NCBI GenBank assembly: GCA_937894465.1
Contig: CALCRE010000047.1
Span: forward strand, 2,208 to 66,207
DNA length: 64,000 nucleotides
Source: an uncultured Clostridia bacterium
GTDB taxonomy: Bacteria; Bacillota; Clostridia; JAAYHZ01
Direction of reading: 5' to 3'
The notes beneath the pieces were generated by a model. It was not told the DNA's origin. It did not search any database and saw nothing but the letters and a program-made list of their open reading frames with translations. Within the stretch, counting starts at the first letter, position 1, and the number at the start of each line of letters is the position of its first letter. Position numbers and translations under genes: made by a program. Positions 11,500 to 61,437 of this stretch are shown here, piece by piece.

Positions 11500-14400
11500 G
11501 TGAAGATGTTAAAGAAAATCACAAGTATCATTCTAGCCTCTGTTATGTGTTTCACAAGTATGTCTGATCAACTGTTGGGTTTTACTGTAACTTCAACTGT
11601 ATATGCAGAAGGAAGTTCGGCAACGGTTAATATCTGTTACGACAACTTCGCCGATACAACGAATTTACAAGTAAACGGCGATATGATTGAAAATAATATC
11701 TTACGCTTTGTAAATGAAGGAGTCCCTGAAAGTATATTTACAAAAGATGCGATTGTTTTAGGTGAGAACCTTTCTTTTAGTACGGCTTTTTCTTTCAAAA
11801 ACCTCTCGCCTTCAGAACCCGCTCCGCAAACAAAGGGCGGTTTTATCTTCACACTGCAACCGATTGGAAACTTCGTTACGACGGATGATTTTCAACATAA
11901 TAATATTTCACCTGCAATTAGTATAGCTTTCGAATTTGAATATATTGATGCTTTTATACCTACAGCATTTAGTCCGTCAGTAAAATTAGAGAGCTCTTCT
12001 AGCACTGACTTTTTGATAGCCCAAGAAGCCCCCCCGAAACTTTGCAGTATCAATATGGTTACATATATCAACGGTGACTATGCTAACCCTATATCCCGGC
12101 ACCCTTTGACGACATATTATGTAACCGCTGAGATTGCTGAATATGATCATGTATGGATCGGATATGACGGTGTCAATAAGGAGCTTGAGATTTTGTATGT
12201 TGACCCTTCCGGTAAATATACACATATTACGGAACCGTTGGATCTTGTTTTACCAAATGAAGTGTATGCAGGTTTTATGGGTTCTTTCGGAAATGCCGGA
12301 AACACAAATACGATCAACAGCTGGTATTTTAAAGATGACTTGTCCATTATGGATCAAGGTATAGTGGATGCCGACATGGCTTTTCTAAATCTTGAGATGG
12401 AACAACTTGAAGTTGATTCTATTGATAATTATACATTTCCTCTTTGCGGGCATTTCGGGAGCACCATCAGTTGGACATCAAGCAATATGGGTGTGGTGGC
12501 AACAGACGGGACTGTAAATCCTCCCTCAATTGGGGAAGGGAATAAAACAGTGATACTAACTGCGGCATTATCGAAGGGGTTACAGGTACGGACGACAAGA
12601 CCGTTTATGATAACAGTCAGAGTACCGGATGTTGTAATTGTCAATGCAGATTTTGAATGGTTAACCGATTTCATTATAAAGAAGAATAACGACGATTTAA
12701 ATCATGTTGTTTCAAACTTGAACCTTCCTACCTTAGGTAATTTCGGAAGCGTGATCAGTTGGGAGTCTAATGATACGGTCATATTAAATTGGGATGGAAC
12801 GGTAAATAGACCTGCTTATAACGAAGTTGATAAGACGGTTACCCTTACTGCTCATATAACAATGAATTATTATACATTAGATAAGACATTCACTGTTACG
12901 GTAAAAGCTATAGAACCAACTGATGAAGAAAAATTGAATGCTGATGCTTCCTGGTTGAATTTATATATGTTGAATGAGGATTTAAGTGATGTAACTTCAG
13001 ATTTAACTCTTCCGGATACAGGTCCTTCCGGAAGTACCATCAGCTGGGCATCTAATAATACGACAGTCTTGAATGCTGACGGGACTGTAGCAAGACCTGC
13101 ATACACAGCAGGGAATGTTGTGGTTACACTGACAGCAACAATCAGCAAGGGTGTAGAAACTACTGATCTCGTATTTACTGTAACAGTCATAAAGCAAGCT
13201 CAAACTGATGTAGAAGCAGTATCTGCTGATGCCGCATTACTAACAGATGCTGTGATCTTAAATGGAAATAGCGCACTGAACAATGTTATGGGTCATTTAA
13301 CTTTACCTACTCTTGGTGCAAACGGGAGTACCATCAGCTGGACCTCCAATAATACAACAGTTTTGAATACAGACGGGACTGTGACAAGACCTGCATACAC
13401 AGCAGGGAATGTTGTGGTTACACTGACAGCAACAATCAGCAAGGGTGTAGAAACTACTGATCTCGTATTTACTGTAACAGTCATAAAGCAAGCTCAAACT
13501 GATGTAGAAGCAGTATCTGCTGATGCCGCATTACTAACAGATGCTGTGATCTTAAATGGAAATAGCGCACTGAACAATGTTATGGGTCATTTAACTTTAC
13601 CTACTCTTGGTGCAAACGGGAGTACCATCAGCTGGACCTCCAATAATACAACAGTTTTGAATACAGACGGGACTGTAGCAAGACCTGCATACGCGGCAGG
13701 GAATGATGTGGTTTCACTGACAGCAACAATCAGCAAGGGTGTAGAAACTACTGATATCGTATTTACTGTAACAGTCATAAAGCAAGCTCAAACAGATGCC
13801 GAAGCGGTATCTGCTGATGCGACATTGTTAACAGATAATGTGATCTTAAATGGAAATAGCGCACTGAACAATGTTACAGGTAATTTAAGCTTACCTACTC
13901 TTGGTGCAAACGGAAGTACGATCAGTTGGGCATCGAATAATACGACAGTTTTAAATGCTGACGGGACTGTAACAAGACCTACATACACAGCAGGAAATAT
14001 TGTTGTTACACTGACAGCAACCGTCAGCAAGGGTACAGAAACTACTGATGTTGTGTTTACTGTAACAGTCATAAAGCAAACACAAACCGATGCAGAAGCA
14101 GTATCTGCCGATGCGACATTGCTGACAGATGACGTAATCTTAAATGGAAATAGCGCACTGAACAATGTTGTGAATAATTTAAGCTTACCTACTCTTGGTG
14201 CAAACGGAAGCACCATCAGCTGGGCATCTGACAATACGACAGTCTTGAATGCTGGCGGGATTGTAACCAGGCCTGCATACACAGCAGGGAATGTTGTTGT
14301 TACGCTGACAGCAACGGTTAGCAAGGGAGTAGAAACTACTGATGTTGTGTTTACTGTAACGGTTATAAAACATGAACAAACAGATGCAGAAGCGGTATCT

Positions 14401-17400
14401 GCTGATGCCGCATTGCTAACAGATGATGTGATTTTAAATGAAAATAGCGCACTGGATAATGTTACGGGAAATTTAATCCTCCCTGTTCTTGGTGCAAACG
14501 GGAGCACCATCAGTTGGGAATCCAATAATACGACATTCTTGAGTAATGACGGGACTGTGATTAGACCTTCCTATACTGCAGGTAGCAAGACCGTTGTTAT
14601 TACCGCTACCATTAAAAAGGGAGTTGTTACTCAAACAAAATCTTTTGGATTGACGATAAAAGCTTCGGATATTACCGATGAAGAACGTGTATCATTAGAT
14701 TATGCATGGTTAACCAAATACAATGTATTAGAGCTCAATCCTTCGATAAATTCTGTAGAGTGGAATCTTTCATTCCCTGTAGCCGGTCCGAACAATTCTG
14801 TTATTACTTGGGAGTCAGATATGCTTTCGGTTATTACTAATGACGGTACCGTCATTCGACCGGAATATGGGCAGGGGCATAAATCGGTCAATGTCACAGC
14901 AACTGTAACAAAAGGGATTTTTCAACGAAAAGCACACTACATCTATGTGGTTTTACAAAAACCTGATCTGGAAGCTCCTATGGTGGTAAGCTCACTACCT
15001 TTTAATAACGGAAGAGCACTCTATGATACAAAGGAAATCACATTGGTATTCAATGAAAACATTATTTTAGGGCCTGCTGCTTTGAGTAATCCGAATACAT
15101 ATGGAATAAAGCTTCAAGGAACCGATACTGTTTTGTTCCGTGCAGCTATAGAGAATGAAAACAAGCTTATTGTATCAACAACTTCCGGTTTAAGTGCAGG
15201 GGAATACAAGCTAATCATTCCGGCGGGTACTTTTGTTGACAAAGCCGGTAATCAGACAAAAGCTTATGAATTAATCTTTATGGTTTCCCCGAAACCGGGA
15301 AAATTAACGGTTGTCTCCTCAACACCGAAAGACCTTGAAGTGGATGTAGATGTGAATATAAGAGAAATCCTCATTCAATTTGATTCCACTAATCTTGTAC
15401 GAAATACTAGCTCCATTCCAATATTTTTAAGGGAGAAAACAACTAAGATTAGTCGCTCAAGCTCTTTTTCAGTCACAGGGGATACGGTCACTTTGAGGAT
15501 ACCGGCACCTCTTTCTTCAGGATTGGTATATGAAATAGTCATACCCGGGGGGATTGTCAAAGATTCGAATAACAACATCAATGAAGAAAAAATCATTCAG
15601 TTTAGGACGAAGTATTCCGGAGCAAAGCCGGTGCTTGTGAAAACCAAACCTGTGAACGGGCAAATGAATGTTAGTTTAAATGATGTTAGTATTGAATTAG
15701 AGTTCTCGCAGAATATTGATTTTTTGACTCTGACGAATTATATAACTTACCTTGTGGATGACCAAGGAAATAAGTACAATTTTATGCCGTATAAAATTGG
15801 AGGAAGCTCAAAAAGGTGGAAGCTAACAACTCCCCACTTAAGTCATTATAAACAGGGTACAACATACACTTTAGTGGGTCCTTACGGTACTTTGGAAAAC
15901 CCGGATTTATTGGAATTCAATGTTCAATTTACAACAGCTTCAAATCGAATGCAGGTAGTTAACAAGTCTCCGAAGTCTTGGTTAGGAAATCCTTTGGATC
16001 AAAAAGTAGAAATTGAATATAACTATCCTGTGGAAATCGGTCCGACCTATTGGGACGTCACTTTCAAGGATTCAAAAGGAAATCCCGTTGACTTTATTAG
16101 GGAAGAGATCGGGAAAAAGGTAACTTTCACACCCATCTCATTACTATCACCGTCTGAAACCTATACGGTAACCATTCCTGAAGGCGCATATAAAGGAGAA
16201 AGTGGATATATAAACGACGGGATTCAGTTTGATTTCCGAACCGTCCAAAAGTTTGATATTAGTATCAATAACCTGATCATTCCGGATCAGGGGTTTGTTG
16301 ATAAGATCCTTTTATTCGATGCAGCTGAAGCTGGAAACATTGCCAGAAGAGCAGGGTCAAATGTCTCATCTTATGAGTGGAACATTGACGGGAAAGTAAT
16401 CGGAAATCAAAAATATGTGTATTATACATTCATTTCTCCGGGTATTCATAAGCTGACCCTTACCATCATCGATGACAAGAACATTCCTTATGTTTTCGAA
16501 AAAGACATCACTGTGAACCACTTGACTGATATAAGGATGACTTTAAAAGACAATGGTTATTCTCCCCGCGGTGTATTTTTAGCGGATCAAAATTCTAAGG
16601 GTATTGTATATAAACTTCAATTGACACAAGAAGGCAAAACCGTTTATGGTGAGAAAATTGATGTGGAACTATACTATAAAGGTGTGTTACAGCGACGATA
16701 CAACAAAATCACATCAAAATTTGGAGATGACACGTATCTATTTGAATTTAAACCGGAATTCGGAGCTTTTGGCAACTATGAGTTGGTGTTTACCTATCAA
16801 GGTGTCGGATATAAAGAGGTGATTCGAGAACCTGTGGTTGTTTCATCTTCCCAGGCTACCATGACTCAAGTATTCTCGTTTCGATTGAGAGACATTTTTG
16901 CATGGAATAGTCCTGAATATTTTGAGGAAGCTCAAAACCTTCAGGTGATCATCAATGGAGAAAAGATGCTTGCATATAAAAAGTGGGATTCTCAGCGTGG
17001 ATATTATGTCTATCAAATCAACAAGATGATGTTGGCAAATACCTACTATCAAATGGAAATTCCTTCTTTTAAGATTGATCGTTGGATTAAGTCTATTTAT
17101 GTCGGAAAAGAAGGATCGGATCCTACCGTTATATCCGGATGGCCTTTAAGACCCGGAGGTATTCAAGAAATCAGTGTTAATTACGATGAAAGCTCTGTGC
17201 TTTATCCTTTCACCGAATTCTATTTTGAAGGTGTATCCGCAAAGCTGGTATTTGATGTGGAAGCAGATTGGAAAGAGGCAGAACCCGGATACTATGAAAT
17301 CAAGTCAATGAATGATCGGTTCAATATAAAAGTTCGCTCTAACGGAAGCGGTGTTCAGAAGATTGTTCTTGATCCGGGATTGGAGTTGAAACCGGGAGAA

Positions 17401-20400
17401 AATTTGGTCATTCGAATGGTATCCAAGCAAGGTGCGGCATCCGGTTGGATATACTGCCCCTATTTCGTTGTAGTTCCTCAGCCTGAGATTTTAGGGCAAA
17501 AGCTGTCCATATCCCTTCAAAGTGGGGAATACGCAGTAAACTGGCCTAACGAGTTTACCGGTGCTTTAGGTAGTAAAATAAGTATGTTTGACGGTGTTCC
17601 GGTTTTGGATGGCGGGAACTTCGGCATTGGCGGCGGTATGCCTACATTCGAGGGTGATCTCGAAGGTGATTGGGCGAATCCCGAAATTAACCTTTCTTTT
17701 GGGGCTAGCGGAGGATATGGAGAAAAGAGTAAAAAGAAAGCAGATACTAAATACAAAAAGGTGAAGAAAGTCACCACGGTAGGTTATGAATTTAGCATTG
17801 AGATTGAAGGTGCATTCACCCTTACATATGATTCACAGAGTAAAGAATGGGATATGTATGGATTCTATATTATGTTGATCGGTGACTTTATCAAAGAGTG
17901 GTCCAAAGGATACGACATGATGGGTGTGGGATTCTCCGCAGGAGTTGGTGTCGGAGGTGAAGTCGCCGGAGGATTGAAGGTGGATATGGCAACCGACGAC
18001 ACCCAATACAGCGGATTTATAAGGATCACACCACGTGCTTTTCTCAGGGTATCGGGAGACTTTTTGGTGGCTTCTGTGAATGGGTATTTGAATGGTTGGA
18101 TTCCGGTTGAAGTACACTTTCCCACCGGATATATCGGTGCAGACATCCAAATCAGTGCTAAAATTCACGCAAAAGCACTATTATGGTCGAAGACAATCTA
18201 TGAAAAGAATCTGCTATCAGAGCATTGGGATAATGGAAAGCCCCAGGTTGTTATCAAGTCTTTAAAGAACTTTAAAATGTTTGAAGACCCTGATACTTTC
18301 CAATTGATGTCTAGGGACTATATCAACAGGCAATCCGTTTGGGCAGCACAGGATAGCGGTTTGGTCAGTGTTATGGCTGTTGGATTTAATGAAAACCCGG
18401 ATACTGAACTAATGATGGAAAACATGTATCCTGATGCTGAACTTATGATGGTAGAAAACCAAGATGAGTTATGGCTTGTATGGACAGATGACAATGCCGA
18501 AAGGGATGATGCAAATCGAACTCAATTACGTTTTGCAGTTCAAAGCAACGGCACATGGAGTAAGCCTGTGTGGATCCACGATGACAAAACAGCTGATTTT
18601 GCTCCCGTTGCAGCAAGTACTGGAAACGGTGTGCTCATGGCATGGCAAAACATCGGGAAACACATTACCGAAGAAGATGGCTTATCCGAAATGTTGAAAA
18701 ACTCCGAAATCAGTGTCACTCAAACCGGTTATACATCCACCGGGGTGGCACCGAATATTATCACACTGACAAGTGATGATGCTGTGGATCACTCTCCCCA
18801 TATTGCAGCACATGGTGATCAGGCATTGCTGGTTTGGACGAAATCAACCGGATTAACCACCGTATTGAATGCAGGAGAAGACCAGCCCGGAAAAGATGAT
18901 CATCGTTTATACTATTCTGCTTGGAACAACGGTGTCTGGAGTACCCCGGAAGCCATTTCAAGTGTGTCCGAAACTGTAATGGATGCTCATTTGGTTATGG
19001 AAGGGGAAACCGGCTTGCTGCTATATACATTAGATATGGATCAGGATCTGTATACCACAGAAGACAGAGAAGTTTTTGTAAGACTTTATGAGAGAAATGC
19101 TTGGAGTGATGCAATTCGGCTCTCAAATAATTCTTATCATGATTGTGCTCCGAAAGCTGTGTTTGTAGAAAGCAATTGGTTCATTACGTGGTTACAAGAA
19201 GGAAACATCCTGTACAGATACGGTTTAGACGGAGATATAAAAGATGAAGAACGATTGCAAAATATTCAAGGGGATTATCAAATTGCTGTTGTTCCGGGTG
19301 AAAAGCCCCTGGTTTCTTTAGTTCATATCAAGCCCGGTGAGGATATGACAACCGGTGCTCATGCTTTCTTCTATGACTTAACATTAGAACAATGGGGTAA
19401 TTCCGTTGCATTGTCGGATTTAGAAAACCATGTGAAAGCGATCAGTTTGGTTTCTACCCAAGATGGAAATATAAATGTTGCATATACCCAAGCTGACATC
19501 ATCACAGAGGCAAATCCTATAGTGATTGAAGGTGTGAAGCAATTTGTGGAAACCCCTGCAATCGGAAATCAGACGGATATGAAGTTGTTGACATATACAC
19601 CGGTTCATGATGTAGCCCTTTCTAAAGAAGATGGAATATTGCTCTCCACGGAATTCCCGTTGCCTGAAATTTTAACTTCTGTTTATGTAACTGTGCAAAA
19701 CCAAGGAGATTATGCAGAGTACGTGAAAGTACGAATTTATGACGGGGATCCTAACGAACAAGGAGTACTCATCGGTGAAACTCCCATGCAGTTACTCCCT
19801 GCACATACATCGAAAGAGTTGGAGATCCCTTGGCTGGTAGACACCGAAGAAAAAGCCACTTATCACTTGTACGCAACAATAGAGCCTCAATTCGGTGTGC
19901 AGGAGATCAATGTTGGGAACAACACCATTGATTTGGCATTTTCTACTGCAGATATTGCAATTACCGATTTGATATATGAAAACATGGTGGCGGATGAATA
20001 TGTAGTGACAGTTACTGTAACTAATACCGGAGGAAAAACCTTGGATGGTGCAACGGTGAATTTAGAAAGTGATGTTGATGGAACCGTTTTAGAGACTAAA
20101 TCACTTGGGGTTCTCGCACCCGGACAGCGGACTGTTGTAACTTATATGATTTCATCAGAAGGTTTGCCCCTAGGAACAGATGGAAAAGTCAACCTACTTG
20201 TTCGTGTCAACCCATCGGAGGGTATCACAGAGGATTTCACAGAGAACAATATGAGAAGGTTTTCACTGAAACCTACAGCAATTACCGTTACAGGAGTAAG
20301 CCCCGGGCCGAAAGACAAAAATGTTGCATTGACAAGTAACATAACACTATCATTTAACATGAATGTTTCCGAAGGCACCGGGTATGACCGCATCCGGTTA

Positions 20401-22131
20401 ATCGATGAAAACTTGAATGTGATCTCTTCCAAAAAGGAACTACAAGGAGCAACATTGATTGTAACACCGGATCAAACTTTAGATTATGATACCGAATACA
20501 CATTGACCATACCCAAAGAAGGGCTAGGTGATGCATACGGCCATTTAATGGAAGGTGATTATATCGTAAGCTTTACAACCGGTTCGTACTATCCTGAAGT
20601 TGTGTTTACTTATCCGGGAGAGGGTATGGAAAATGCAGCAATCGATACTCAAATCCGTTTGAAGTTCAATCAGACCATAAAAGAGGGCTTGCGTTTCTCA
20701 GACATTACCGGTCTTCAATCCGATACCGGAACCATTATTATGACTCCTCAGATACAAGGAGAATACTTGGTCTTGAACTATGATGGAAAGCTTCGTGAAA
20801 GCACGGACTACACAGTCGTGATTCCGGCCGGTGCGGTGCAAAATGATTATGAATTCGCATTGCAAGAAGATTATGTTCTGGTATTCACCACCGGTGTACT
20901 CCTGGATGGAGATGAAGAAGATGCCGATAGCGGAAGTATTGAGTTGAATATCAATCCGAATGAAACCATGGCATGTATGGACATCAACGGTATACAAAGG
21001 TTCATACCTATCATCAGAAACGGTAATCGTGGGGTGATAAAGATAGGAGCCATAACGGCTGATCTATTTAAAGATGACCAAAACACAGAGCTGACTGTCC
21101 CTGCTTTACCGGGGATGAATGCCTATACAGTTGAAATTCCCGCAGAACATTTAAGACAAGGGGAGTCATCCTTAACGATCCGTACTTCAATTGGCAGTAT
21201 TGTTATTCCCGCTGATCTTTTGTCCAATCAAGGCGATGTCAATGGAAAAATTGTGACAATCTCCATTACGTCTGTTGACAAATCCACACTACCGGAAGAT
21301 GTGAGAATAGCTGTTGGAAACAGACCGGTTCTGCAAATTAATGTGGCGATAGACGGAGAAACTATTTCCTGGAACAACCCGAATGCCCCTGTGATGATAT
21401 CTATTCCGTATGTACCAACACAAGAAGAATTGGGTGACCCGGAAAGCATTGTTGTTTGGTACATTGACTCCAATGATCAGATCATAGTGGTTCCTAACGG
21501 AAATTACAATCCTGATGCAAAAGCAGTGACATGTATCACGACTCATTTAAGCATTTTTGCCGTAGCATATGATGATGTAGTGTTTGAAGATGTACCAAAG
21601 GATTCATGGTATGAAAAGGCTGTAAAATATATTGCGGCAAGAGGAATCACCAAAGGTACAGGAGAAGGCTTGTTCAGTCCCTTGAGCAAGCTCACCAGAG
21701 CACAGTTTATCACCATGATCATGAGAGCCTGTAATATACAACCGGATGCCGATCCGAAAGAAAACTTTAGTGATGCGGGAGATACTTGGTATACAGGGTA
21801 TCTAGCGGCGGCAAAGCGACTTGGTATATCTCAAGGGGTGGGAAACAACTTGTTTGCTCCGGGAAAAGATATAACCCGTCAAGAGATGTTTACTTTGTTG
21901 TATAACACTTTAAAAATTACAAAGCAGTTACCAGAGATCCAAGAAGGAAAACCGATTCGAACGTTGTCCGACTTCACAGATGAAGGACAAATCGATCTTT
22001 GGGCAAAGGAAGCCATGACCTTTTTAGTTGAAAGCGGCATCATCAAAGGAAGTGATGGAAAGCTGATACCGAAGGGATCGTCTATAAGAGCGGAAATGGC
22101 ACAAGTGCTGTATAATTTGTTGGCGAAGTAG
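11500..22131 (+). CDS. Giant (3543 aa) secreted, S-layer-anchored multidomain surface protein
   Basis: Signal peptide (MKMLKKITSIILASVMCFTSMS). N-terminal L-type (legume-like) lectin domain (GGFIFTLQP). Nine ~98-aa Ig-like repeats (SWxSxN...DGTVxRP). SbsA/Big_5-like Ig domains and a PKD-like domain (YEWNIDGK). Two CARDB-like domains ending E-x-N-E-x-NN. A C-terminus with three SLH domains (FEDVPKDSWYEKAVKYIAARGITKG, FSDAGDTWYTGYLAAAKRLGISQG, FTDEGQIDLWAKEAMTFLVESGIIKG). Confidence 0.85.
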   Translation: MKMLKKITSIILASVMCFTSMSDQLLGFTVTSTVYAEGSSATVNICYDNFADTTNLQVNGDMIENNILRFVNEGVPESIFTKDAIVLGENLSFSTAFSFKNLSPSEPAPQTKGGFIFTLQPIGNFVTTDDFQHNNISPAISIAFEFEYIDAFIPTAFSPSVKLESSSSTDFLIAQEAPPKLCSINMVTYINGDYANPISRHPLTTYYVTAEIAEYDHVWIGYDGVNKELEILYVDPSGKYTHITEPLDLVLPNEVYAGFMGSFGNAGNTNTINSWYFKDDLSIMDQGIVDADMAFLNLEMEQLEVDSIDNYTFPLCGHFGSTISWTSSNMGVVATDGTVNPPSIGEGNKTVILTAALSKGLQVRTTRPFMITVRVPDVVIVNADFEWLTDFIIKKNNDDLNHVVSNLNLPTLGNFGSVISWESNDTVILNWDGTVNRPAYNEVDKTVTLTAHITMNYYTLDKTFTVTVKAIEPTDEEKLNADASWLNLYMLNEDLSDVTSDLTLPDTGPSGSTISWASNNTTVLNADGTVARPAYTAGNVVVTLTATISKGVETTDLVFTVTVIKQAQTDVEAVSADAALLTDAVILNGNSALNNVMGHLTLPTLGANGSTISWTSNNTTVLNTDGTVTRPAYTAGNVVVTLTATISKGVETTDLVFTVTVIKQAQTDVEAVSADAALLTDAVILNGNSALNNVMGHLTLPTLGANGSTISWTSNNTTVLNTDGTVARPAYAAGNDVVSLTATISKGVETTDIVFTVTVIKQAQTDAEAVSADATLLTDNVILNGNSALNNVTGNLSLPTLGANGSTISWASNNTTVLNADGTVTRPTYTAGNIVVTLTATVSKGTETTDVVFTVTVIKQTQTDAEAVSADATLLTDDVILNGNSALNNVVNNLSLPTLGANGSTISWASDNTTVLNAGGIVTRPAYTAGNVVVTLTATVSKGVETTDVVFTVTVIKHEQTDAEAVSADAALLTDDVILNENSALDNVTGNLILPVLGANGSTISWESNNTTFLSNDGTVIRPSYTAGSKTVVITATIKKGVVTQTKSFGLTIKASDITDEERVSLDYAWLTKYNVLELNPSINSVEWNLSFPVAGPNNSVITWESDMLSVITNDGTVIRPEYGQGHKSVNVTATVTKGIFQRKAHYIYVVLQKPDLEAPMVVSSLPFNNGRALYDTKEITLVFNENIILGPAALSNPNTYGIKLQGTDTVLFRAAIENENKLIVSTTSGLSAGEYKLIIPAGTFVDKAGNQTKAYELIFMVSPKPGKLTVVSSTPKDLEVDVDVNIREILIQFDSTNLVRNTSSIPIFLREKTTKISRSSSFSVTGDTVTLRIPAPLSSGLVYEIVIPGGIVKDSNNNINEEKIIQFRTKYSGAKPVLVKTKPVNGQMNVSLNDVSIELEFSQNIDFLTLTNYITYLVDDQGNKYNFMPYKIGGSSKRWKLTTPHLSHYKQGTTYTLVGPYGTLENPDLLEFNVQFTTASNRMQVVNKSPKSWLGNPLDQKVEIEYNYPVEIGPTYWDVTFKDSKGNPVDFIREEIGKKVTFTPISLLSPSETYTVTIPEGAYKGESGYINDGIQFDFRTVQKFDISINNLIIPDQGFVDKILLFDAAEAGNIARRAGSNVSSYEWNIDGKVIGNQKYVYYTFISPGIHKLTLTIIDDKNIPYVFEKDITVNHLTDIRMTLKDNGYSPRGVFLADQNSKGIVYKLQLTQEGKTVYGEKIDVELYYKGVLQRRYNKITSKFGDDTYLFEFKPEFGAFGNYELVFTYQGVGYKEVIREPVVVSSSQATMTQVFSFRLRDIFAWNSPEYFEEAQNLQVIINGEKMLAYKKWDSQRGYYVYQINKMMLANTYYQMEIPSFKIDRWIKSIYVGKEGSDPTVISGWPLRPGGIQEISVNYDESSVLYPFTEFYFEGVSAKLVFDVEADWKEAEPGYYEIKSMNDRFNIKVRSNGSGVQKIVLDPGLELKPGENLVIRMVSKQGAASGWIYCPYFVVVPQPEILGQKLSISLQSGEYAVNWPNEFTGALGSKISMFDGVPVLDGGNFGIGGGMPTFEGDLEGDWANPEINLSFGASGGYGEKSKKKADTKYKKVKKVTTVGYEFSIEIEGAFTLTYDSQSKEWDMYGFYIMLIGDFIKEWSKGYDMMGVGFSAGVGVGGEVAGGLKVDMATDDTQYSGFIRITPRAFLRVSGDFLVASVNGYLNGWIPVEVHFPTGYIGADIQISAKIHAKALLWSKTIYEKNLLSEHWDNGKPQVVIKSLKNFKMFEDPDTFQLMSRDYINRQSVWAAQDSGLVSVMAVGFNENPDTELMMENMYPDAELMMVENQDELWLVWTDDNAERDDANRTQLRFAVQSNGTWSKPVWIHDDKTADFAPVAASTGNGVLMAWQNIGKHITEEDGLSEMLKNSEISVTQTGYTSTGVAPNIITLTSDDAVDHSPHIAAHGDQALLVWTKSTGLTTVLNAGEDQPGKDDHRLYYSAWNNGVWSTPEAISSVSETVMDAHLVMEGETGLLLYTLDMDQDLYTTEDREVFVRLYERNAWSDAIRLSNNSYHDCAPKAVFVESNWFITWLQEGNILYRYGLDGDIKDEERLQNIQGDYQIAVVPGEKPLVSLVHIKPGEDMTTGAHAFFYDLTLEQWGNSVALSDLENHVKAISLVSTQDGNINVAYTQADIITEANPIVIEGVKQFVETPAIGNQTDMKLLTYTPVHDVALSKEDGILLSTEFPLPEILTSVYVTVQNQGDYAEYVKVRIYDGDPNEQGVLIGETPMQLLPAHTSKELEIPWLVDTEEKATYHLYATIEPQFGVQEINVGNNTIDLAFSTADIAITDLIYENMVADEYVVTVTVTNTGGKTLDGATVNLESDVDGTVLETKSLGVLAPGQRTVVTYMISSEGLPLGTDGKVNLLVRVNPSEGITEDFTENNMRRFSLKPTAITVTGVSPGPKDKNVALTSNITLSFNMNVSEGTGYDRIRLIDENLNVISSKKELQGATLIVTPDQTLDYDTEYTLTIPKEGLGDAYGHLMEGDYIVSFTTGSYYPEVVFTYPGEGMENAAIDTQIRLKFNQTIKEGLRFSDITGLQSDTGTIIMTPQIQGEYLVLNYDGKLRESTDYTVVIPAGAVQNDYEFALQEDYVLVFTTGVLLDGDEEDADSGSIELNINPNETMACMDINGIQRFIPIIRNGNRGVIKIGAITADLFKDDQNTELTVPALPGMNAYTVEIPAEHLRQGESSLTIRTSIGSIVIPADLLSNQGDVNGKIVTISITSVDKSTLPEDVRIAVGNRPVLQINVAIDGETISWNNPNAPVMISIPYVPTQEELGDPESIVVWYIDSNDQIIVVPNGNYNPDAKAVTCITTHLSIFAVAYDDVVFEDVPKDSWYEKAVKYIAARGITKGTGEGLFSPLSKLTRAQFITMIMRACNIQPDADPKENFSDAGDTWYTGYLAAAKRLGISQGVGNNLFAPGKDITRQEMFTLLYNTLKITKQLPEIQEGKPIRTLSDFTDEGQIDLWAKEAMTFLVESGIIKGSDGKLIPKGSSIRAEMAQVLYNLLAK
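13030..14793 (+). repeat. Six tandem 294-bp intragenic repeat units (98-aa Ig-like modules); units 2 and 3 are nearly identical
   Basis: The GG(G/A)AG(T/C)ACCATCAGCTGG anchor recurs at 13030, 13324, 13618, 13912, 14206 and 14500, exactly 294 bp apart. The region 13324-13911 is a near-perfect duplicate. More diverged copies flank it within 12355-14980. Confidence 0.85.
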
Positions 22132-23479: not shown

Positions 23480-24763
23480 GTGAATAAAGAAGACCGGGGA
23501 ATGGCTAAGCATCTTGTGGTCATTTCATATGACGCTTTTTCAGGGGACAATTGGGAGTTAGCCAAAAGCCTCCCTAACTTATCCCGCTTAATAAAAGAAG
23601 GAGCTTATAGCACAAAACTTAAGAGTGTTTATCCTTCATTGACTTATGTGGTGCACTCTACCATGGTGACAGGTGTATGGCCGGATAAGCATGGTGTCAC
23701 ACATAACCATCCCCTCCAACCTTTTGTAGAGAATCGAAATCAAATGTGGTATTGGTTTCGAGATGACTTGAAGGTTCCTACCATTTACGATGCAGTAAAG
23801 GAAGCCGGTATGAAAACTGCGGGGATCTTGTGGCCGGTGACGGCCAGATCATCCATCGACTTTAACATGCCTGAAATTGTTGCGATCAATCGAGAGAACC
23901 AGGCAATAAAAATATTGAAAAACGGTAGTCCGTTTTTCTGTATCAGAATGCAATTAAAATATGGACATATCAGAAAAGGTATTGCGCAACCTTTTTTGGA
24001 TGATTTCTCTACGACATGTGCAGTGGATATCATTAAGAGAAAAAAACCCAATCTATTGTTGTTACACCTCATTGATTTGGATGATACAAAGCATCGATAC
24101 GGAACGAATAGCCCCGAAGTACATGAAACAGTGATGCGTATGGATCAAAGGCTAGGACAAATCGTGAATGCTGTTGAAGAAGCCGGGATAGGGGAGGATA
24201 CGGTTTTTATCGTCATTGGAGATCATGGACAAATCAATGTCAACTACAGAGTTCATTTGAATAACTTATTGGAAGAACAAAACCTCATCAATGGAAACAT
24301 GTGGAGGGCATATTTTCAAACCACCGGTGGGGCTGCTTATTTACACATAAAACCGGGGGATCAAGAAGCTGAAAAAACAGCTCTTGCAGTTCTTGAGAAA
24401 GCAATCAAAATGGATGAATACGGGATTGAATCCTTCTTCACAAGAAATGAATTAGATGGGTTGCATGTCGATCAATCCGTAAAGTATATGGTAGAAGCAA
24501 AAGAAGGATACTGCTTTGTAGACAGCTTGTCCGATCGCATGATCGATGATTTGGGTAAGCTGGGTATTTCATATGCAACCCATGGATTTTCGCCGGATAA
24601 GGAGAGCTACAAGTGCAATGTGGTGGTCTCCGGTAAGAAAATCAAGAATGAGTATGAACTAAGCAATATGGAGATGATAGATCTTGCACCTACTATGGCA
24701 AAGATATTGGGAATTCATTTTAACTGCGACGGAAAAAGCTTGGATGAAATATTTGATGTATAA
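23480..24763 (+). CDS. Alkaline-phosphatase-superfamily phosphodiesterase/nucleotide pyrophosphatase (type I phosphodiesterase family)
   Basis: VVISYDAF...SVYPSLTYVVHSTMVTGVWPDKHGVTHN is the core of the NPP/AlkP metal-binding region. GTG start with AAGGAG 9 nt upstream. Confidence 0.65.
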   Translation: MNKEDRGMAKHLVVISYDAFSGDNWELAKSLPNLSRLIKEGAYSTKLKSVYPSLTYVVHSTMVTGVWPDKHGVTHNHPLQPFVENRNQMWYWFRDDLKVPTIYDAVKEAGMKTAGILWPVTARSSIDFNMPEIVAINRENQAIKILKNGSPFFCIRMQLKYGHIRKGIAQPFLDDFSTTCAVDIIKRKKPNLLLLHLIDLDDTKHRYGTNSPEVHETVMRMDQRLGQIVNAVEEAGIGEDTVFIVIGDHGQINVNYRVHLNNLLEEQNLINGNMWRAYFQTTGGAAYLHIKPGDQEAEKTALAVLEKAIKMDEYGIESFFTRNELDGLHVDQSVKYMVEAKEGYCFVDSLSDRMIDDLGKLGISYATHGFSPDKESYKCNVVVSGKKIKNEYELSNMEMIDLAPTMAKILGIHFNCDGKSLDEIFDV

Positions 24764-24804
24764 GACCGTAGTAAAAAGATGAGATTACAAAAGGAGAAGG
24801 TTCA

Positions 24805-25326
24805 TTGTATATAGATACGAAATTAGAAGGTTTTCAGTTGAGATTCGCGAAAGAAAAAGATTGTGCTCTCATTCTGGAGTTTATAAAGGACTTGGCGGAA
24901 TATGAAAAGATGTCCCATGTGGTTGTTGCCACAGAGGAGGACTTGGCGAAATATTTGTTTGAACAAAAAACAGCTGAGGTGATCATCGGAGAATATAACC
25001 GCAAGCCGGTGGCATTTGCGCTATTCTTTCATAATTTTTCTACATTCTTGGGGAAACCGGGGCTTTATCTGGAGGATGTGTATGTAAAGACCGAAATGAG
25101 AGGAAGGGGGATTGGTAGTATCATTCTATCGTATCTTGCCAAACTGGCTAAAGAAAGAAATTGCGGACGAATGGAATGGTCTTGCTTGAATTGGAATGAG
25201 CCCTCTATTGCTTTTTATAAAAAGCTAGGAGCCGTCCCTTTGGACGAATGGACGGTTTATCGATTACAAGATGAGGCTTTGGATGATATGGCTGAGAATT
25301 TTGACCACACTTTGAGTGAGAAATAA
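24805..25326 (+). CDS. GNAT N-acetyltransferase, spermidine/spermine (diamine) N-acetyltransferase-like
   Basis: SSAT-like pattern (LAEYEKM...VAFALFFHNFSTFLGKPGLYLEDVYV...RGRGIGS acetyl-CoA motif). TTG start with AAGGAGAAGG ribosome-binding site. Confidence 0.7.
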   Translation: MYIDTKLEGFQLRFAKEKDCALILEFIKDLAEYEKMSHVVVATEEDLAKYLFEQKTAEVIIGEYNRKPVAFALFFHNFSTFLGKPGLYLEDVYVKTEMRGRGIGSIILSYLAKLAKERNCGRMEWSCLNWNEPSIAFYKKLGAVPLDEWTVYRLQDEALDDMAENFDHTLSEK

Positions 25327-25521
25327 CTATACCTTTATGTGACAAAACTATTTTAATTAAGTAAAAAAGGTGGAAAGTGTCATGAAAGATGCATTTGGTA
25401 AATTGATTTTTATTCGATATGGAAAAATGATGCATGAATGTGCTGCATTCATCGTATATCAACTGCGTTTGGCTGAAGAATCATTAGATCAAATTAAAAA
25501 GATACAATATAAAACGCATAC

Positions 25522-26061
25522 GTGGCAAAAGATATGAAGAAACCTAGAAAGATGTTAAGTGACTGGGATGCTCCCTATATTCAATCACTGGTAAAGTTAA
25601 TTGAAACACAAAGCAAATTAACACTGGCAAATTGGGCAATTGATTATTCTGAACAAGTTATGTTACCCATATGGTATAAACATTACCCGGATGATTTGCG
25701 TCCTCGAAATGCAATGGAAGATGCACGTTTGTGGTTAAAAGGCGTCATCAAACTGCCCCAAGCTAAAAAAACTATATTAGAATGCCATGCTGCAGCACGA
25801 GAAAGTGAAACGACTCCTGCTGCACAAGCTGCCGCAAGAGCGATCGGTCAATCTGCTTCCACCATACATTCGGCAAGACATTGTATCGGTCTTGCGCTGT
25901 ACGGAGCGGTGGCAGTAACATACGACATCCTTGGTGTCAATATAAAGAAGGAACAATTTCAATTATATACTGAAGAGGAATGCTCAAGAATGCTGAAAGC
26001 TTTGCAATCTGTGGCTGTAGAGAACGAGCCCAATCCTGCAAAAATCGATTGGAAGTGTTAA
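25522..26061 (+). CDS. Hypothetical all-alpha protein, Ala-rich (possible immunity-protein-like fold)
   Basis: 179-aa ORF with an AARESETTPAAQAAARAIGQSASTIHSARH helical low-complexity segment. No catalytic motif recognised. The family call is tentative. Confidence 0.45.
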   Translation: MAKDMKKPRKMLSDWDAPYIQSLVKLIETQSKLTLANWAIDYSEQVMLPIWYKHYPDDLRPRNAMEDARLWLKGVIKLPQAKKTILECHAAARESETTPAAQAAARAIGQSASTIHSARHCIGLALYGAVAVTYDILGVNIKKEQFQLYTEEECSRMLKALQSVAVENEPNPAKIDWKC

Positions 26062-26168
26062 CATAAAAACAAAAGAAAATAAAAGGTATCGCACGATATA
26101 TTGATTTAATACGTGCGATATGATATGATGATCGTATGATAATAAAACTAATCGTACGGGGTGATGTT

Positions 26169-26927
26169 ATGAATGATCAAAAGAGGAACAAAATCATTAC
26201 TGCAACGGAATTGAAGCGGAATTTGGGAAAGTACTTGGATTATGTCATTGACAACAATGAGGTAGTGATCTCTAAGAATGGAGAAAAGGCTGTTCGCATG
26301 ACTCCTTATTTGTCGGACTATTCAAGATATGAGTTGATGCAACTCAAAGAACAAGCATTAGATTATCAGTATGGGGGCAAAACAGTATCCTACGAGGAGT
26401 TCATGGAAATCTATGAAAAGAGTGAACTGAGGATGGAGTTTATTGATGGTCAGATCGTCATATTGGATTCCCCTAGTTTTAGGCATCAAGAAATATCCGG
26501 TCGTTTATTCATCATTTTCAGCCAGTTTCTAAAAAGCAAGAAATGCAAAGTTATTTTTGCACCCTTTGATGTTCATTTTTATAAGCCGGAAATCAAGGAT
26601 CCGGATGTTTGTCAGCCGGATTTATTGATTGCTTGTGATACCGATGAAAAAATCAATGAAAAAGGTCGTTATATGGGAACACCTTCGCTAGTGGTAGAAA
26701 TTCTTTCTCCTAGCACATGTTCAAAAGATATGGTAAAAAAGCTAAACACATATATGCTTTCAGGTGTAAAGGAATACTGGGTAATAGATCCGGAGCAAAA
26801 AACAATCATCATTTATGGTTTCAATAATGTGCAAATAGCAGGCTTTTTTATCTACAAAAATGATGAAACGGCAGCATCGAGTGCATTTGAGGGACTTGTA
26901 GCACCCTTGTCAGAAATATTTGGTTAA
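26169..26927 (+). CDS. Fusion protein: N-terminal Phd/YefM-type antitoxin-like domain plus C-terminal Uma2 (DUF820) PD-(D/E)xK endonuclease-like domain
   Basis: N-terminus ITATELKRNLGKYLDYVIDNNEVVISKNGEKAVRMTPY matches the Phd/YefM pattern. The C-terminus has Uma2 hallmarks (ELRMEFIDGQIVILDSP, QPDLLIACD, PSLVVEILSPST, EYWVIDPEQKTIIIY). Start at ATG 26169. Confidence 0.7.
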   Translation: MNDQKRNKIITATELKRNLGKYLDYVIDNNEVVISKNGEKAVRMTPYLSDYSRYELMQLKEQALDYQYGGKTVSYEEFMEIYEKSELRMEFIDGQIVILDSPSFRHQEISGRLFIIFSQFLKSKKCKVIFAPFDVHFYKPEIKDPDVCQPDLLIACDTDEKINEKGRYMGTPSLVVEILSPSTCSKDMVKKLNTYMLSGVKEYWVIDPEQKTIIIYGFNNVQIAGFFIYKNDETAASSAFEGLVAPLSEIFG

Positions 26928-26937
26928 ACATATTTCT

Positions 26938-27480
26938 TTATTTCAATAAATAACAGCTGGTATAGGTAATGGTTTTCGTCCCATAATAGTAGGGTAGATC
27001 GGACAACTCACACACTTTGCTGACCCATAAGCCGTATGCTTCCATGGATGAAATGGATTTGTCCGGAAAACGGCAAGGTTGGTTTGGATAAGAGCATTCT
27101 TCGCATAGGGTACATGTACCGGCACCCATAGGTAATACGTCGGGAAATTGCTCCTTCAATTGATCTACAAGGGTAGCAAAGTTTTGCTTATGTCGTTCAC
27201 CGGTTTCAGATATGGTTTCGTAATCAAAATCATCCTCTAAATTTCCGGTTGTTTGAACCAAAATGCCATATGAATACTTGGATGCTTCTTCTGTAGCATC
27301 TTCAATGCTTCCACATGCAGGAGGACAACGCCAGTTCTTGTTGTAACTTCGGCAAAGGTTCGCATTGCACATATCTCTTACCTCGGGCATAAAAACCAGA
27401 GCTTTCGTGTTAAGCTTGCCGGCATGAGTAAAACCGTAATCTATTGCTTGTTGAATCAATTCTTCCGTATTGTATATCAT
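26938..27480 (-). CDS. Cys-rich predicted metal-binding protein (DUF2284-like)
   Basis: 180 aa with CNANLCRSYNKNWRCPPAC and CTLCEECSYPNQPC cysteine clusters. Confidence 0.55.
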   Translation of the reverse strand: MIYNTEELIQQAIDYGFTHAGKLNTKALVFMPEVRDMCNANLCRSYNKNWRCPPACGSIEDATEEASKYSYGILVQTTGNLEDDFDYETISETGERHKQNFATLVDQLKEQFPDVLPMGAGTCTLCEECSYPNQPCRFPDKSISSMEAYGLWVSKVCELSDLPYYYGTKTITYTSCYLLK

Positions 27481-27740
27481 TTTTTCCTCACCTATATTTT
27501 CTTCATTGATTTTACATAGTAAAATATAAGTTTAGCATGGCACCTACTCTCGGTCAATGAAAGAATCCGTCATTCTTTTCATCATCTTGTGTTTTTTTTA
27601 TGTGTCCTAAGTTTATATAACCCGGCCGGGAGAAGGAAATTATTAAATATGTTAACGGAGGAAAAATAAAGCATAGAAGAAATTTGCTCGTCAACTTGGA
27701 AAGCTTTTTACCGTTTTGTTTATTATAAAGTCCAAAATCG

Positions 27741-28046
27741 GTGGCGTTGTCAGTAGAGGAGAGTGAACAAAAAAGTGTAGACGGTGGACATTCACCATGG
27801 AGGTTGGATCCGGTGTATGTTGCTCAAGCGTTTGTCAGCCTAGAAATTTCTCCGGAAGGAACCGAAGGTGATTATCCGGTCAAATATGAGGAATTAAAAC
27901 TTATCAAAAGTACCGGTACGGATGCCATTGTGGAAGTTACGGCAGAGGTCACACCGGTTAGTAAAGTGTATCTAAAAAGGTTGATCAGGCAAGATAGTAC
28001 AGGAATATGGACAGTGGTCGGGTATGATCCTGCACGTGAAAATTAA
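27741..28046 (+). CDS. Hypothetical small protein (start codon uncertain)
   Basis: 101-codon ORF with no in-frame ATG. It would need a GTG or TTG start and has no convincing ribosome-binding site. Retained only because it fills an otherwise empty gap. Confidence 0.3.
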   Translation: MALSVEESEQKSVDGGHSPWRLDPVYVAQAFVSLEISPEGTEGDYPVKYEELKLIKSTGTDAIVEVTAEVTPVSKVYLKRLIRQDSTGIWTVVGYDPAREN

Positions 28047-59817: not shown

Positions 59818-61437
59818 ATGACTACATATAGAAAACCGTTGGTCGACATACCGGATGATAAAGGTGTTCATGTAAAAACCGCCGGTGCAAAAAGTGAGAT
59901 GTACGTCTATAAATATGTAAAGTATTACAGGAATGATCAAGGCAATCCCAGAAACAAGGCTAAGGCAATCGGTAAGTTGGATCCGGAAACCGGCAGAATG
60001 GTTCCAAATAGCAACTACTTTCAAATGTATCACTTGGATCCTTTGCTACCGGACATCACAATTTGGAAATACGGTTACACATACTTGATCCTAAAAGTCT
60101 GCAAAGACATAAAACTTCTCGACTGCCTTACCCGTGTATTCGGTGAGCGTGCCATTGACATTATTGTAATGGCTTCCTACATCATCCGTAAGGGAAACGC
60201 CATGGACGGAATTGATGATTGGCAGCAAGAAAATTATTTTCCGGGCTTTGAACGTTTGTTGACTTCACAATCCACCAGCAGGATATTCGGCACACTGTCG
60301 GCGGTCAAGATGAATGATTTCTTTAAACATTGGATACAAGAGGCTTTTCATGGAGGCAGCGTGTTTTATGACGTTACTTCAATATCGTCATATTCTCAGG
60401 AGATGCCTGATGTCGAGTACGGCTACAATAGGGACGGTGAAGACTTGGCACAGTTCAATGTGGGACTCTTTTGTGATGAGTCCACCAGAACACCGCTGTA
60501 TTACAACCGTTACAACGGCAGCCTGACTGACAAGGTGAATCTCTCCTATGTTCTTAAAAATGCAGAATCTGTGGGGATAAAAAATATCAAGGCAGTTGTG
60601 GACGGAGGCTTCTGGAGCGAAGAATGTATCAAAAGCCTCAATTCTTGTTGTGATACTTTTACCATAGGTATGCCGGCTTTTTTGAAAGAGTCACAGAAGA
60701 TACTTTCCGAATATGCGGACGGCATTGAAAAATATGAAAATGAATTAATCGAATACCATGTTTATTGTGTAGAGGTAAATACAACCCTATACGGTGTCCC
60801 CGGTAAGGTTCTTTTATACTACGACCCTTGGAATCACCTTAATTTGTGCAACGAAATGTCTGAACGGATCAACAAGCTCAAGTCGGAGCTTTCAGCTCTT
60901 AAACGTTATCCGAAGAGCAAGTTGAGCCGTTACACTAAGTATTTCATCATAACAAAACATGAAAATGACAATGGATTTGATTTTATGGTAGATACAGACA
61001 ATGTCGAACAACTGCGAAAATATAAAGGATTCTTTCCCATTTTTACAACCGATATGAATGCCACGCCGTCAGATAATCTTTATTTTTATCGTACGAAGGA
61101 TGTCGAGGAGAAGCTATTCGATCAGATTAAGGTGGATATGGATGGCGGACGTATTCGTACCCACAGTATGGAAGCAACCGAGGGAAAAACATTCGTCACA
61201 TTCATAGCATGTGTTATCCGATCATACATGTTTAATAAACTTTCAAAGCATTTTACAGAAAATTCAACCTCCTTAAAAAAGGTGTTGAATAAATTATCGA
61301 ACATAACAATAATATCAAGCTATGACGGATATCGTTTTACAAAAGCATTGACCAAAGAACAGAAAGACATACTTTCGGCGTTTGACGCAGTTAATGATAT
61401 CAAGGTTAGTGTCAAGAATGAAAAATGTCTACGCTAA
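59818..61437 (+). CDS. DDE transposase (539 aa), IS4/IS1634-like
   Basis: Size and position inside the inverted-repeat-bounded element. The family assignment is by length and general pattern only. Confidence 0.7.
   Translation: MTTYRKPLVDIPDDKGVHVKTAGAKSEMYVYKYVKYYRNDQGNPRNKAKAIGKLDPETGRMVPNSNYFQMYHLDPLLPDITIWKYGYTYLILKVCKDIKLLDCLTRVFGERAIDIIVMASYIIRKGNAMDGIDDWQQENYFPGFERLLTSQSTSRIFGTLSAVKMNDFFKHWIQEAFHGGSVFYDVTSISSYSQEMPDVEYGYNRDGEDLAQFNVGLFCDESTRTPLYYNRYNGSLTDKVNLSYVLKNAESVGIKNIKAVVDGGFWSEECIKSLNSCCDTFTIGMPAFLKESQKILSEYADGIEKYENELIEYHVYCVEVNTTLYGVPGKVLLYYDPWNHLNLCNEMSERINKLKSELSALKRYPKSKLSRYTKYFIITKHENDNGFDFMVDTDNVEQLRKYKGFFPIFTTDMNATPSDNLYFYRTKDVEEKLFDQIKVDMDGGRIRTHSMEATEGKTFVTFIACVIRSYMFNKLSKHFTENSTSLKKVLNKLSNITIISSYDGYRFTKALTKEQKDILSAFDAVNDIKVSVKNEKCLR

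Follow-up and report, generated by a model that had tools for sequence, protein, structure and literature searches.

A 64,000-nucleotide stretch of contig CALCRE010000047.1 from an uncultured Clostridia bacterium (hereafter, the window) carries a gene (positions 26169–26927, plus strand) whose single 252-amino-acid product joins an N-terminal domain of the Phd/YefM antitoxin type to a C-terminal Uma2 domain, a predicted nuclease of the PD-(D/E)XK class. We consider it probable that this coding sequence, together with its own promoter and the operator-like palindromes laid across it, forms a stand-alone, one-gene unit that encodes an autorepressed, dosage-limited predicted nuclease. The protein very probably represses its own promoter through its N-terminal domain; this is the most economical explanation of these palindromes, because they co-vary with the type of N-terminal domain, hold conserved positions in the promoter across homologues and have no other conserved gene beside them. 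A preliminary description of the region had proposed the fusion, next to an alanine-rich open reading frame (ORF), and had named an autoregulated nuclease among its possible meanings. Both ORFs are present (from 25522 and from 26169), both domains are recovered by Pfam with their folds recovered by AlphaFold2 and Foldseek, and the idea of autoregulation gains backing from the conserved, co-varying palindromes.

Domain architecture and predicted active site

Pfam searches assigned residues 8–54 (26190–26330) to PhdYeFM_antitox (PF02604; E = 1.3e-8, 34.9 bits against a cut-off of 29.8), in agreement with a second profile (NCBIfam TIGR01552 phd_fam, 28.9 bits against 20.8), and residues 76–244 (26394–26900) to Uma2 (PF05685, also COG4636/DUF820; E = 2.8e-29, 102.2 bits against a cut-off of 27, profile positions 2–168 of 172); no domain besides these two was detected. 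The PF02604 alignment spans profile positions 2–48 of 74 only, and positions 49–74 are unmatched in the fusion protein. The earlier suggestion of a self-neutralised toxin–antitoxin fusion was therefore too strong, given that only the DNA-binding half of the antitoxin fold appears to be present. The two domains are separated by a linker (residues 55–75, 26331–26393) that is partly helical and modelled with low confidence.

An AlphaFold2 model built from 72 homologues (mean predicted local distance difference test (pLDDT) score of 82; <50 at residues 55–64 in the linker) displays the β-α-α-β-β-α order of Phd/YefM N-terminal domains, which points to dimerisation and DNA binding, followed by a PD-(D/E)XK core in the C-terminal domain. 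Foldseek matched the N-terminal domain to 4zlx, 4zm2, 3hs2, 2a6q and 6l8e (probability 1.0 each), of which 4zm2 and 6l8e are DNA-bound Phd/YefM structures, and the restriction-endonuclease-like fold of the C-terminal domain agrees with solved Uma2 structures. A sequence search with the N-terminal domain alone against the Protein Data Bank gave no Phd or YefM match, and structure and profile comparison were used instead.

Feder and Bujnicki described the active site of the Uma2 family as H...PD...EXX...K, with the lysine moved to the next helix (PMC551604). The fusion protein carries this signature as H106...P150-D151...E177(-I-L-S180)...K191 (codons of H106, D151, E177 and K191 at 26484–26486, 26619–26621, 26697–26699 and 26739–26741, respectively). 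Across 34 diverse fusion proteins, 34–58% identical to the query, H106, P150-D151, E177, S180 and K191 do not vary; among cluster representatives, ≥53 of 55 fusion proteins and ≥79 of 81 solo (Uma2-only) proteins keep the same catalytic residues. The predicted Uma2 active site is complete as judged from this alignment. The preliminary description had named loss of the YefM fold or of the conserved catalytic residues as grounds for rejecting its reading, and neither is seen. Two cysteines, Cys126 (26544–26546) and Cys156 (26634–26636), are nearly invariant in this Firmicute Uma2 clade, and 9y1l as aligned has neither. In these proteins of strict anaerobes, the pair might serve as a disulfide, a redox centre or a metal-binding site. 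We rejected them as a fusion-specific trait, as solo members of the same clade have both.

The start codon implied by the preliminary description, ATG 26169, is correct: a ribosome-binding site (GGGGTGA, 26158–26164) lies ahead of it and homologues are approximately 250 amino acids long. An alternative ATG at 26136 was rejected: it lies inside the promoter (in the −10 region), and homologues start at the position that corresponds to 26169. A frameshift or assembly artefact can be ruled out as the source of the fusion on comparative grounds, because the protein matches 3,614 clusters at 90% identity and the best 120 of these all have both Pfam domains.

Promoter palindromes and their co-variation with the N-terminal domain

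Four operator-like sites of 8 bp lie across the predicted promoter of the fusion gene. O1 (TCGCACGA, 26089–26096), which has 7 of the 8 bases of the homologue consensus TCGTACGA, is placed just upstream of the −35 element (TTGATT, 26101–26106, plus strand), and O2 (ACGTGCGA, 26111–26118) in the spacer between the −35 and −10 elements; together they form the arms of a perfect 9-nt inverted repeat. O3 (TCGTATGA, 26132–26139) directly follows the extended −10 element (TATGAT, 26124–26129, plus strand, with TG at 26121–26122) at the expected transcription start, and O4 (TCGTACGG, 26152–26159) overlaps the ribosome-binding site. The centres of O1 to O4 are 22, 21 and 20 bp apart. Both promoter elements were found by promoter scan; the −35 element has the position of the conserved TTGCA/TTGACA of 51 anchored homologue promoters, and the family consensus at the −10 element is ATATG.TATAAT. 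The four-site layout is common to the window and two relatives that are approximately 80% identical (loci L001 and L002). No structured RNA was found in the leader (no Rfam match in 25300–27700 at E up to 1).

Comparison across homologues showed that these palindromes are a property of the gene family. The upstream 150-nt windows, 12.7 kb in total, contain 86 exact copies of TCGTACGA, and the remaining 791 kb of the loci contain 7 (approximately 770-fold enrichment). All 7 outside copies are within approximately 200 nt of a fusion gene, and a per-locus listing of approximately 790 kb of flanking DNA contained no site farther away than this. When all 256 possible 8-bp palindromes were ranked by occurrence upstream of fusion genes, TCGTACGA (79) and a second palindrome, TTAGCTAA (29), came out on top. 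Of 82 homologue promoters, 51 have a site that runs directly into the ribosome-binding site as ATCGTACGAGGTGAT; anchoring these 51 promoters on that site gave the consensus ttTCGTaCGAtA ... TTGcaT ... TaTCGTaC.ATATG.TATAAT.ATCGTACGAGGTGAT ... ATG. The motifs hold fixed positions relative to the −35 element, the −10 element and the ribosome-binding site, with centre spacings of 21 and 50 bp. The family layout thus comprises one site upstream of the −35 element, a degenerate site in the spacer (to which O2 of the window corresponds) and one at the transcription start that is fused to the ribosome-binding site. By contrast with the fusion genes, 33 Uma2-only relatives had no TCGTACGA and two TTAGCTAA sites upstream at ≤1 mismatch.

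The palindrome changes with the domain that is predicted to read it. A distant fusion clade known from metagenomes, with the N terminus MxVxsTdlQNNFGKYL, has TTAGCTAA at the same promoter positions (28 exact copies in 4.9 kb of upstream sequence versus 1 in 129.5 kb). All 69 GTAC-type promoters go with K16-x-N-L domains, and the AGCT-type promoters go with Q16-N17-N-F (26), K-N-N-L (4) or another type (1). Positions 16 and 17 are K followed by T, S or Q in the TCGTACGA class (R in the window, where the codons of K16 and R17 occupy 26214–26219) and Q followed by N in the TTAGCTAA class. In the profile alignment these positions stand opposite R10 and Q11 of YefM, the residues through which YefM reads the bases of the GTAC core in its operator (PMC7544224); YefM operators are TGTACA palindromes (PMC1802561).

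Both TCGTACGA and TTAGCTAA are missing upstream of a few fusion genes (L122 (upstream of 2501), L104 and L061/L070/L116/L117). Other repeated palindrome-like motifs occur in this set of loci, TTGATTAA/TTAATCAA in L122 and CGCAC-type half-sites in the EGVVITATELKQNLGKY group, and hint at further operator specificity classes. At least four fusion-gene copies in the metagenome-assembled genome (MAG) JAJOKP01 all have the same operator type, and therefore paralogues may cross-regulate one another.

Outside the fusion promoter, the window contains one perfect copy of TCGTACGA, at 61089, inside a 539-amino-acid ORF (59818–61437) that we take to be a transposase. A second regulated gene was considered there and rejected, as the site is intragenic with no fusion-type gene near it; this copy is probably coincidental. 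A further ORF of the window, at 11500–22131, is very large (3,543 amino acids); it has a signal-like N-terminal segment and many near-identical repeats, each of roughly 90 amino acids, and presumably encodes a protein of the cell surface.

Genomic context

The fusion gene stands alone and is inherited without a partner. For neighbour comparison we used 80 related genomic loci from different species: the neighbours in the window (Imm5_like, DUF2284, GNAT and others) had no tblastn matches in them, and all-against-all clustering of 675 flanking ORFs yielded no conserved neighbour, the most recurrent cluster being a generic ABC ATPase at 11 loci. The flanks differ between all contexts inspected. 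An 81%-identical homologue is flanked by a DUF6544 gene (upstream) and a GntR-family gene, and other homologues adjoin genes for SmpB and NrdD, or for a xylanase (glycoside hydrolase) and a topoisomerase. Within a species the position can be stable: homologue P0020 occurs on >150 contigs, and the three places shown have the same neighbours.

No integrase or transposase gene lies next to the fusion gene in the window or in the other contexts inspected. A cognate toxin gene (Doc, YoeB, RelE or PIN) was not found in the same operon, the downstream gene being a convergent gene for a DUF2284 metal-binding protein (26938–27480, minus strand). The end of the DUF2284 gene is 10 nt from that of the fusion gene (26927), with no terminator predicted between them. 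We also considered an origin from a toxin–antitoxin pair in which a split Phd gene sits next to a solo Uma2 gene; this was rejected, as 40 Uma2-only loci gave marginal matches only (E ≥0.03).

Distribution, relatives and naming

The preliminary description had called the architecture unusual, a view that the databases contradict: in addition to the 3,614 clusters noted above, a search of representatives clustered at 50% identity gave 13,865 matching proteins (E ≤0.001), and 55 of the best 150 clusters at 50% identity have the fusion architecture. The Phd–Uma2 architecture is, by these profile matches, widespread and already present in databases. In a set with one genome per species, 174 relatives were found across 185,579 species genomes, almost all of them in anaerobic Firmicutes (for example, Clostridia, Syntrophomonas, Desulfitobacterium and Thermincola), often with several copies per genome. 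Tandem or multiple copies, some beside Uma2-only paralogues, are found at L017 (6001–7520), L053 (5147–6744), L020 (486–2599), L004 (6001–7644) and L018. Makarova et al. (2009) regarded Uma2 as a 'likely solo toxin' that is seldom found with antitoxins and whose paralogues group into cassettes (PMC2701414).

The same Uma2 clade is also found fused to an N-terminal Xre-type helix–turn–helix domain (HTH_3) in place of Phd/YefM (P0221, P0241, P0253, P0267, P0213 and P0215), and the joining of an antitoxin-type DNA-binding head to this nuclease therefore appears to have happened more than once. Other relatives are tandem double-Uma2 proteins of 400–490 amino acids (for example, P0131).

Many of the matching clusters are labelled 'type II toxin-antitoxin system Phd/YefM family antitoxin', a name that covers the first 55 residues only. 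Without a toxin partner and without a neutralising segment, these thousands of labels amount to a systematic annotation error. The protein family is thus already catalogued under a mistaken name, and we found no description of its operator code or stand-alone autoregulation in the searched literature; no study of a Phd–Uma2 fusion or its operators, and no biochemical or biological function for any Uma2 family member, was found there.

Proposed mechanism and alternatives

In the mechanism that we propose, the fusion protein would dimerise through its Phd/YefM-type N-terminal domain, as suggested by the fold, and each dimer would bind one 8-bp GTAC-core palindrome (consensus TCGTACGA). Three to four such sites approximately 21 bp apart span the −35 region, the spacer, the transcription start and the ribosome-binding site of the protein's own gene, and their phasing would allow cooperative occupation of the whole promoter and hence tight negative feedback, as their conservation and co-variation suggest. 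The Uma2 domain would be the effector, a predicted metal-dependent nuclease, for which the N-terminal domain probably also supplies the required dimer geometry. Instead of neutralising a partner toxin, the antitoxin-type domain would limit the dose of the potentially harmful nuclease attached to it. Such an operator circuit implies that the dose of nuclease must be tightly limited, which would be an indirect sign of an active, potentially harmful enzyme. The fusion gene would, under this mechanism, be a one-component, toxin–antitoxin-like element and the fused counterpart of the proposed Uma2 'solo toxin'. The independent Xre-type fusions of the same Uma2 clade, the proposal of Uma2 as a solo toxin together with the tandem and multiple copies seen here, and a match of the Uma2 domain to a PADLOC defence-candidate model count in its favour.

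Several observations weigh against this interpretation. Each operator in the window is one or two mismatches away from the consensus TCGTACGA, and another conserved host factor could in principle read the palindromes. The contexts of the homologues (SmpB, NrdD, glycoside hydrolase and topoisomerase) are of a housekeeping kind, with no defence island or mobile element among them. No record in collections of 72,556 plasmids and 50,697 phages covers ≥80% of the fusion protein; the matching genes there are Uma2-only. This lack weakens the case for a toxin, an addiction system or a defence role, and would be expected just as well of an ordinary chromosomal enzyme that processes DNA. The searched literature, of 8 million papers, also yields nothing on binding, repression, nuclease action or toxicity for members of the fusion family. 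A defence or addiction role, as raised in the preliminary description, is speculative: the Uma2 domain matches the model PDLC04832 of the PADLOC defence candidate PDC-S03 (E = 4.9e-57, residues 71–251), and the neighbours of fusion genes in the contexts inspected are metabolic or housekeeping genes.

An alternative that we hold to be unlikely is that the protein is an ordinary chromosomal repair or recombination enzyme—for example, a structure-specific enzyme resembling Holliday-junction resolvases—under homeostatic autoregulation, neither toxin-like nor defensive. The housekeeping neighbourhoods, the stable position of P0020 within its species and the absence of full-length copies from the plasmids and phages searched all suit such an enzyme. 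Its distribution suits it poorly: the 174 relatives are scattered patchily across the species genomes, several paralogues per genome (some in tandem) and the lack of cross-species synteny are typical of accessory or selfish genes, and three to four operators would be unusually heavy repression for a housekeeping enzyme.

A bolder reading keeps autorepression and adds a second task to the DNA-binding head. A swappable head (Phd/YefM or Xre-HTH) would both repress the gene and direct Uma2, defining a new class of one-component, self-limiting nucleases that act as abortive-infection toxins or at specific sites, with a specificity that two residues could switch (K16/T17 giving TCGTACGA and Q16/N17 giving TTAGCTAA). 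We regard this as conjectural, with a small chance of being correct; if true, it would for the first time open the very large, uncharacterised family of Uma2 proteins to functional study.

A sequence-targeted nuclease, with the Phd/YefM domain bringing Uma2 to 8-bp palindromes in a restriction- or homing-like manner and the promoter sites serving as targets or docking sites too, strikes us as rather improbable. The modular build of a DNA-binding domain, flexible linker and nuclease, the independent Xre-type HTH fusions and the resemblance of these rare 8-bp palindromes to restriction sites speak for it. Against it, cleavage at sites in the gene's own promoter would be self-destructive, no methyltransferase or other partner gene is conserved nearby in the 80 loci, and a perfect site persists at 61089 within the presumed transposase ORF of the same window. 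Nor was avoidance of TCGTACGA detected: 755 kb of flanking DNA contains 1 copy where a maximal-order Markov model predicts 1.4, in a test of low power.

A pure transcription factor, in which Uma2 has no catalytic role and instead acts as a sensor or oligomerisation domain linking dimers on the operators, is highly improbable. Solved Uma2 entries (9y1l, 6okh and 3ot2) do hold two chains each, and the 21-bp phasing of the operators would suit bridging of neighbouring dimers. Yet the predicted catalytic residues are invariant or nearly so in fusion and solo members, which argues for kept enzymatic activity, and such a factor would regulate only itself, given that only its own promoters are detectable as targets in the approximately 790 kb of flanking DNA.

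Finally, a two-gene module that pairs the Uma2 nuclease with the upstream Imm5_like protein as its immunity factor or antitoxin is scarcely tenable and largely refuted by comparative data. In its favour, the genes are neighbours on one strand, 107 nt apart with no predicted terminator between them, and the upstream family is named for putative immunity proteins. Against it, Imm5_like is missing from all 80 related loci, its place upstream of the 81%-identical homologue is taken by DUF6544, it occurs without a Uma2 or toxin neighbour in the two other Imm5_like contexts inspected, its adjacency to the fusion gene is limited to contigs with a 100%-identical protein and the fusion gene has its own conserved promoter in the gap.

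The reading of the gene as an autorepressed, dosage-limited predicted nuclease is the one that we favour. As a genomic object the locus is ordinary, yet it is a clean experimental entry into Uma2/COG4636, a very large family that was predicted to be a nuclease twenty years ago: the Phd–Uma2 subfamily offers a testable circuit with defined operators, a promoter layout and a predicted two-residue specificity switch.

The upstream Imm5_like gene

The alanine-rich ORF upstream of the fusion gene is not the orphan that it was first taken for. It belongs to Imm5_like (PF21805; E = 5.7e-38, 130 bits against a cut-off of 25), a family named for putative immunity proteins, in line with the immunity-like character first attributed to it, and has 2,047 homologous clusters. 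Nearly all of these homologues are 175 amino acids long; the true start is therefore ATG 25534 and not GTG 25522, giving a gene of 175 codons (25534–26061, plus strand) that is adjacent to the fusion unit but outside it. The only terminator-like site in 24700–27800 is at 25046–25062. The proposal that both genes form one module fails on the tblastn comparison (0 of 80 related loci), and the adjacency is equally missing at the 81%-identical homologue and at the two other Imm5_like genes inspected. No Uma2 or recognisable toxin gene lies beside the Imm5_like genes of Desulfitobacterium metallireducens and one other MAG, no polymorphic-toxin gene precedes Imm5_like in the window or in these two other contexts, and the contigs that repeat the adjacency come from the same organism. 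Imm5_like seems, on this comparison, to be an unrelated neighbour that is adjacent by chance.

The Imm5_like protein retains 70–76% identity over the full 175 amino acids across MAGs labelled Clostridia, Bacteroidota, Chitinophagales and Methylocystaceae (P0271–P0390). Immunity proteins usually diverge faster than this. Given this high identity across phylum labels and the lack of an adjoining toxin gene in the contexts seen, the protein may in reality do something other than confer immunity. The genes upstream of Imm5_like in the window encode a GNAT protein and a 51-amino-acid ORF (MKDAFGKLIF..., 25382–25537) with a good ribosome-binding site (AAGGTGG). The stop codon of this ORF overlaps the Imm5_like start codon as ATGA, which suggests that the two are translationally coupled. 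The 51-amino-acid ORF is called as a gene in L174 and L175 and has no counterpart upstream of Imm5_like in L084–L087.

Comparison with known systems

Like the established members of Uma2/COG4636/DUF820 (PF05685; 1wdj, 3ot2, 6okh and 9y1l), the fusion genes occur as paralogous and tandem copies. They differ from solved and classical Uma2 proteins in the additional N-terminal Phd/YefM DNA-binding domain, from the classical family, described in cyanobacteria and Thermus, in being found in anaerobic Firmicutes and from Uma2-only relatives in the dedicated palindromic operators of their promoters. The likeness to the PADLOC candidate PDC-S03 is limited to the Uma2 part, the only part that PDLC04832 covers; PDC-S03 is itself only a candidate, with no mention found in the searched literature, and the contexts of the fusion genes seen here are not defence islands.

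With the antitoxins of Phd–Doc, YefM–YoeB and Axe–Txe, the fusion protein shares the fold of the N-terminal domain. The operators of YefM (TGTACA) and of the fusion genes (TCGTACGA) are both palindromes with a GTAC core that overlap the gene's own promoter; one dimer per palindrome would be expected in both cases, and the positions predicted to switch specificity in the fusion protein are those of YefM R10 and Q11. The fusion promoters differ in having three to four sites instead of two, spaced by approximately 21 bp instead of the 12 bp of Escherichia coli YefM. The fusion protein also lacks the toxin-binding C-terminal segment, in place of which it has the linker and Uma2, and no toxin gene follows at its locus. 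Because it has neither a neutralising segment nor a toxin partner, it does not appear to be a bona fide type II antitoxin. Nor does the fusion gene seem to be part of a toxin–immunity pair: in polymorphic systems the immunity gene normally follows the gene for a multidomain protein that is secreted or trafficked and ends in the toxin domain, whereas the fusion gene lies downstream of Imm5_like.

Single-chain fusions of an antitoxin-type DNA-binding domain to an effector have been described as Xre–COG2856 (IrrE, ImmR/ImmA-like) and RHH–HEPN (PMC2701414). Together with the Xre-HTH–Uma2 proteins reported here, these are the closest systems in logic, as a DNA-binding and an enzymatic domain share one chain and the gene often stands alone; in the fusion described here, Phd/YefM is the partner domain that sets it apart from Xre–COG2856 and RHH–HEPN.

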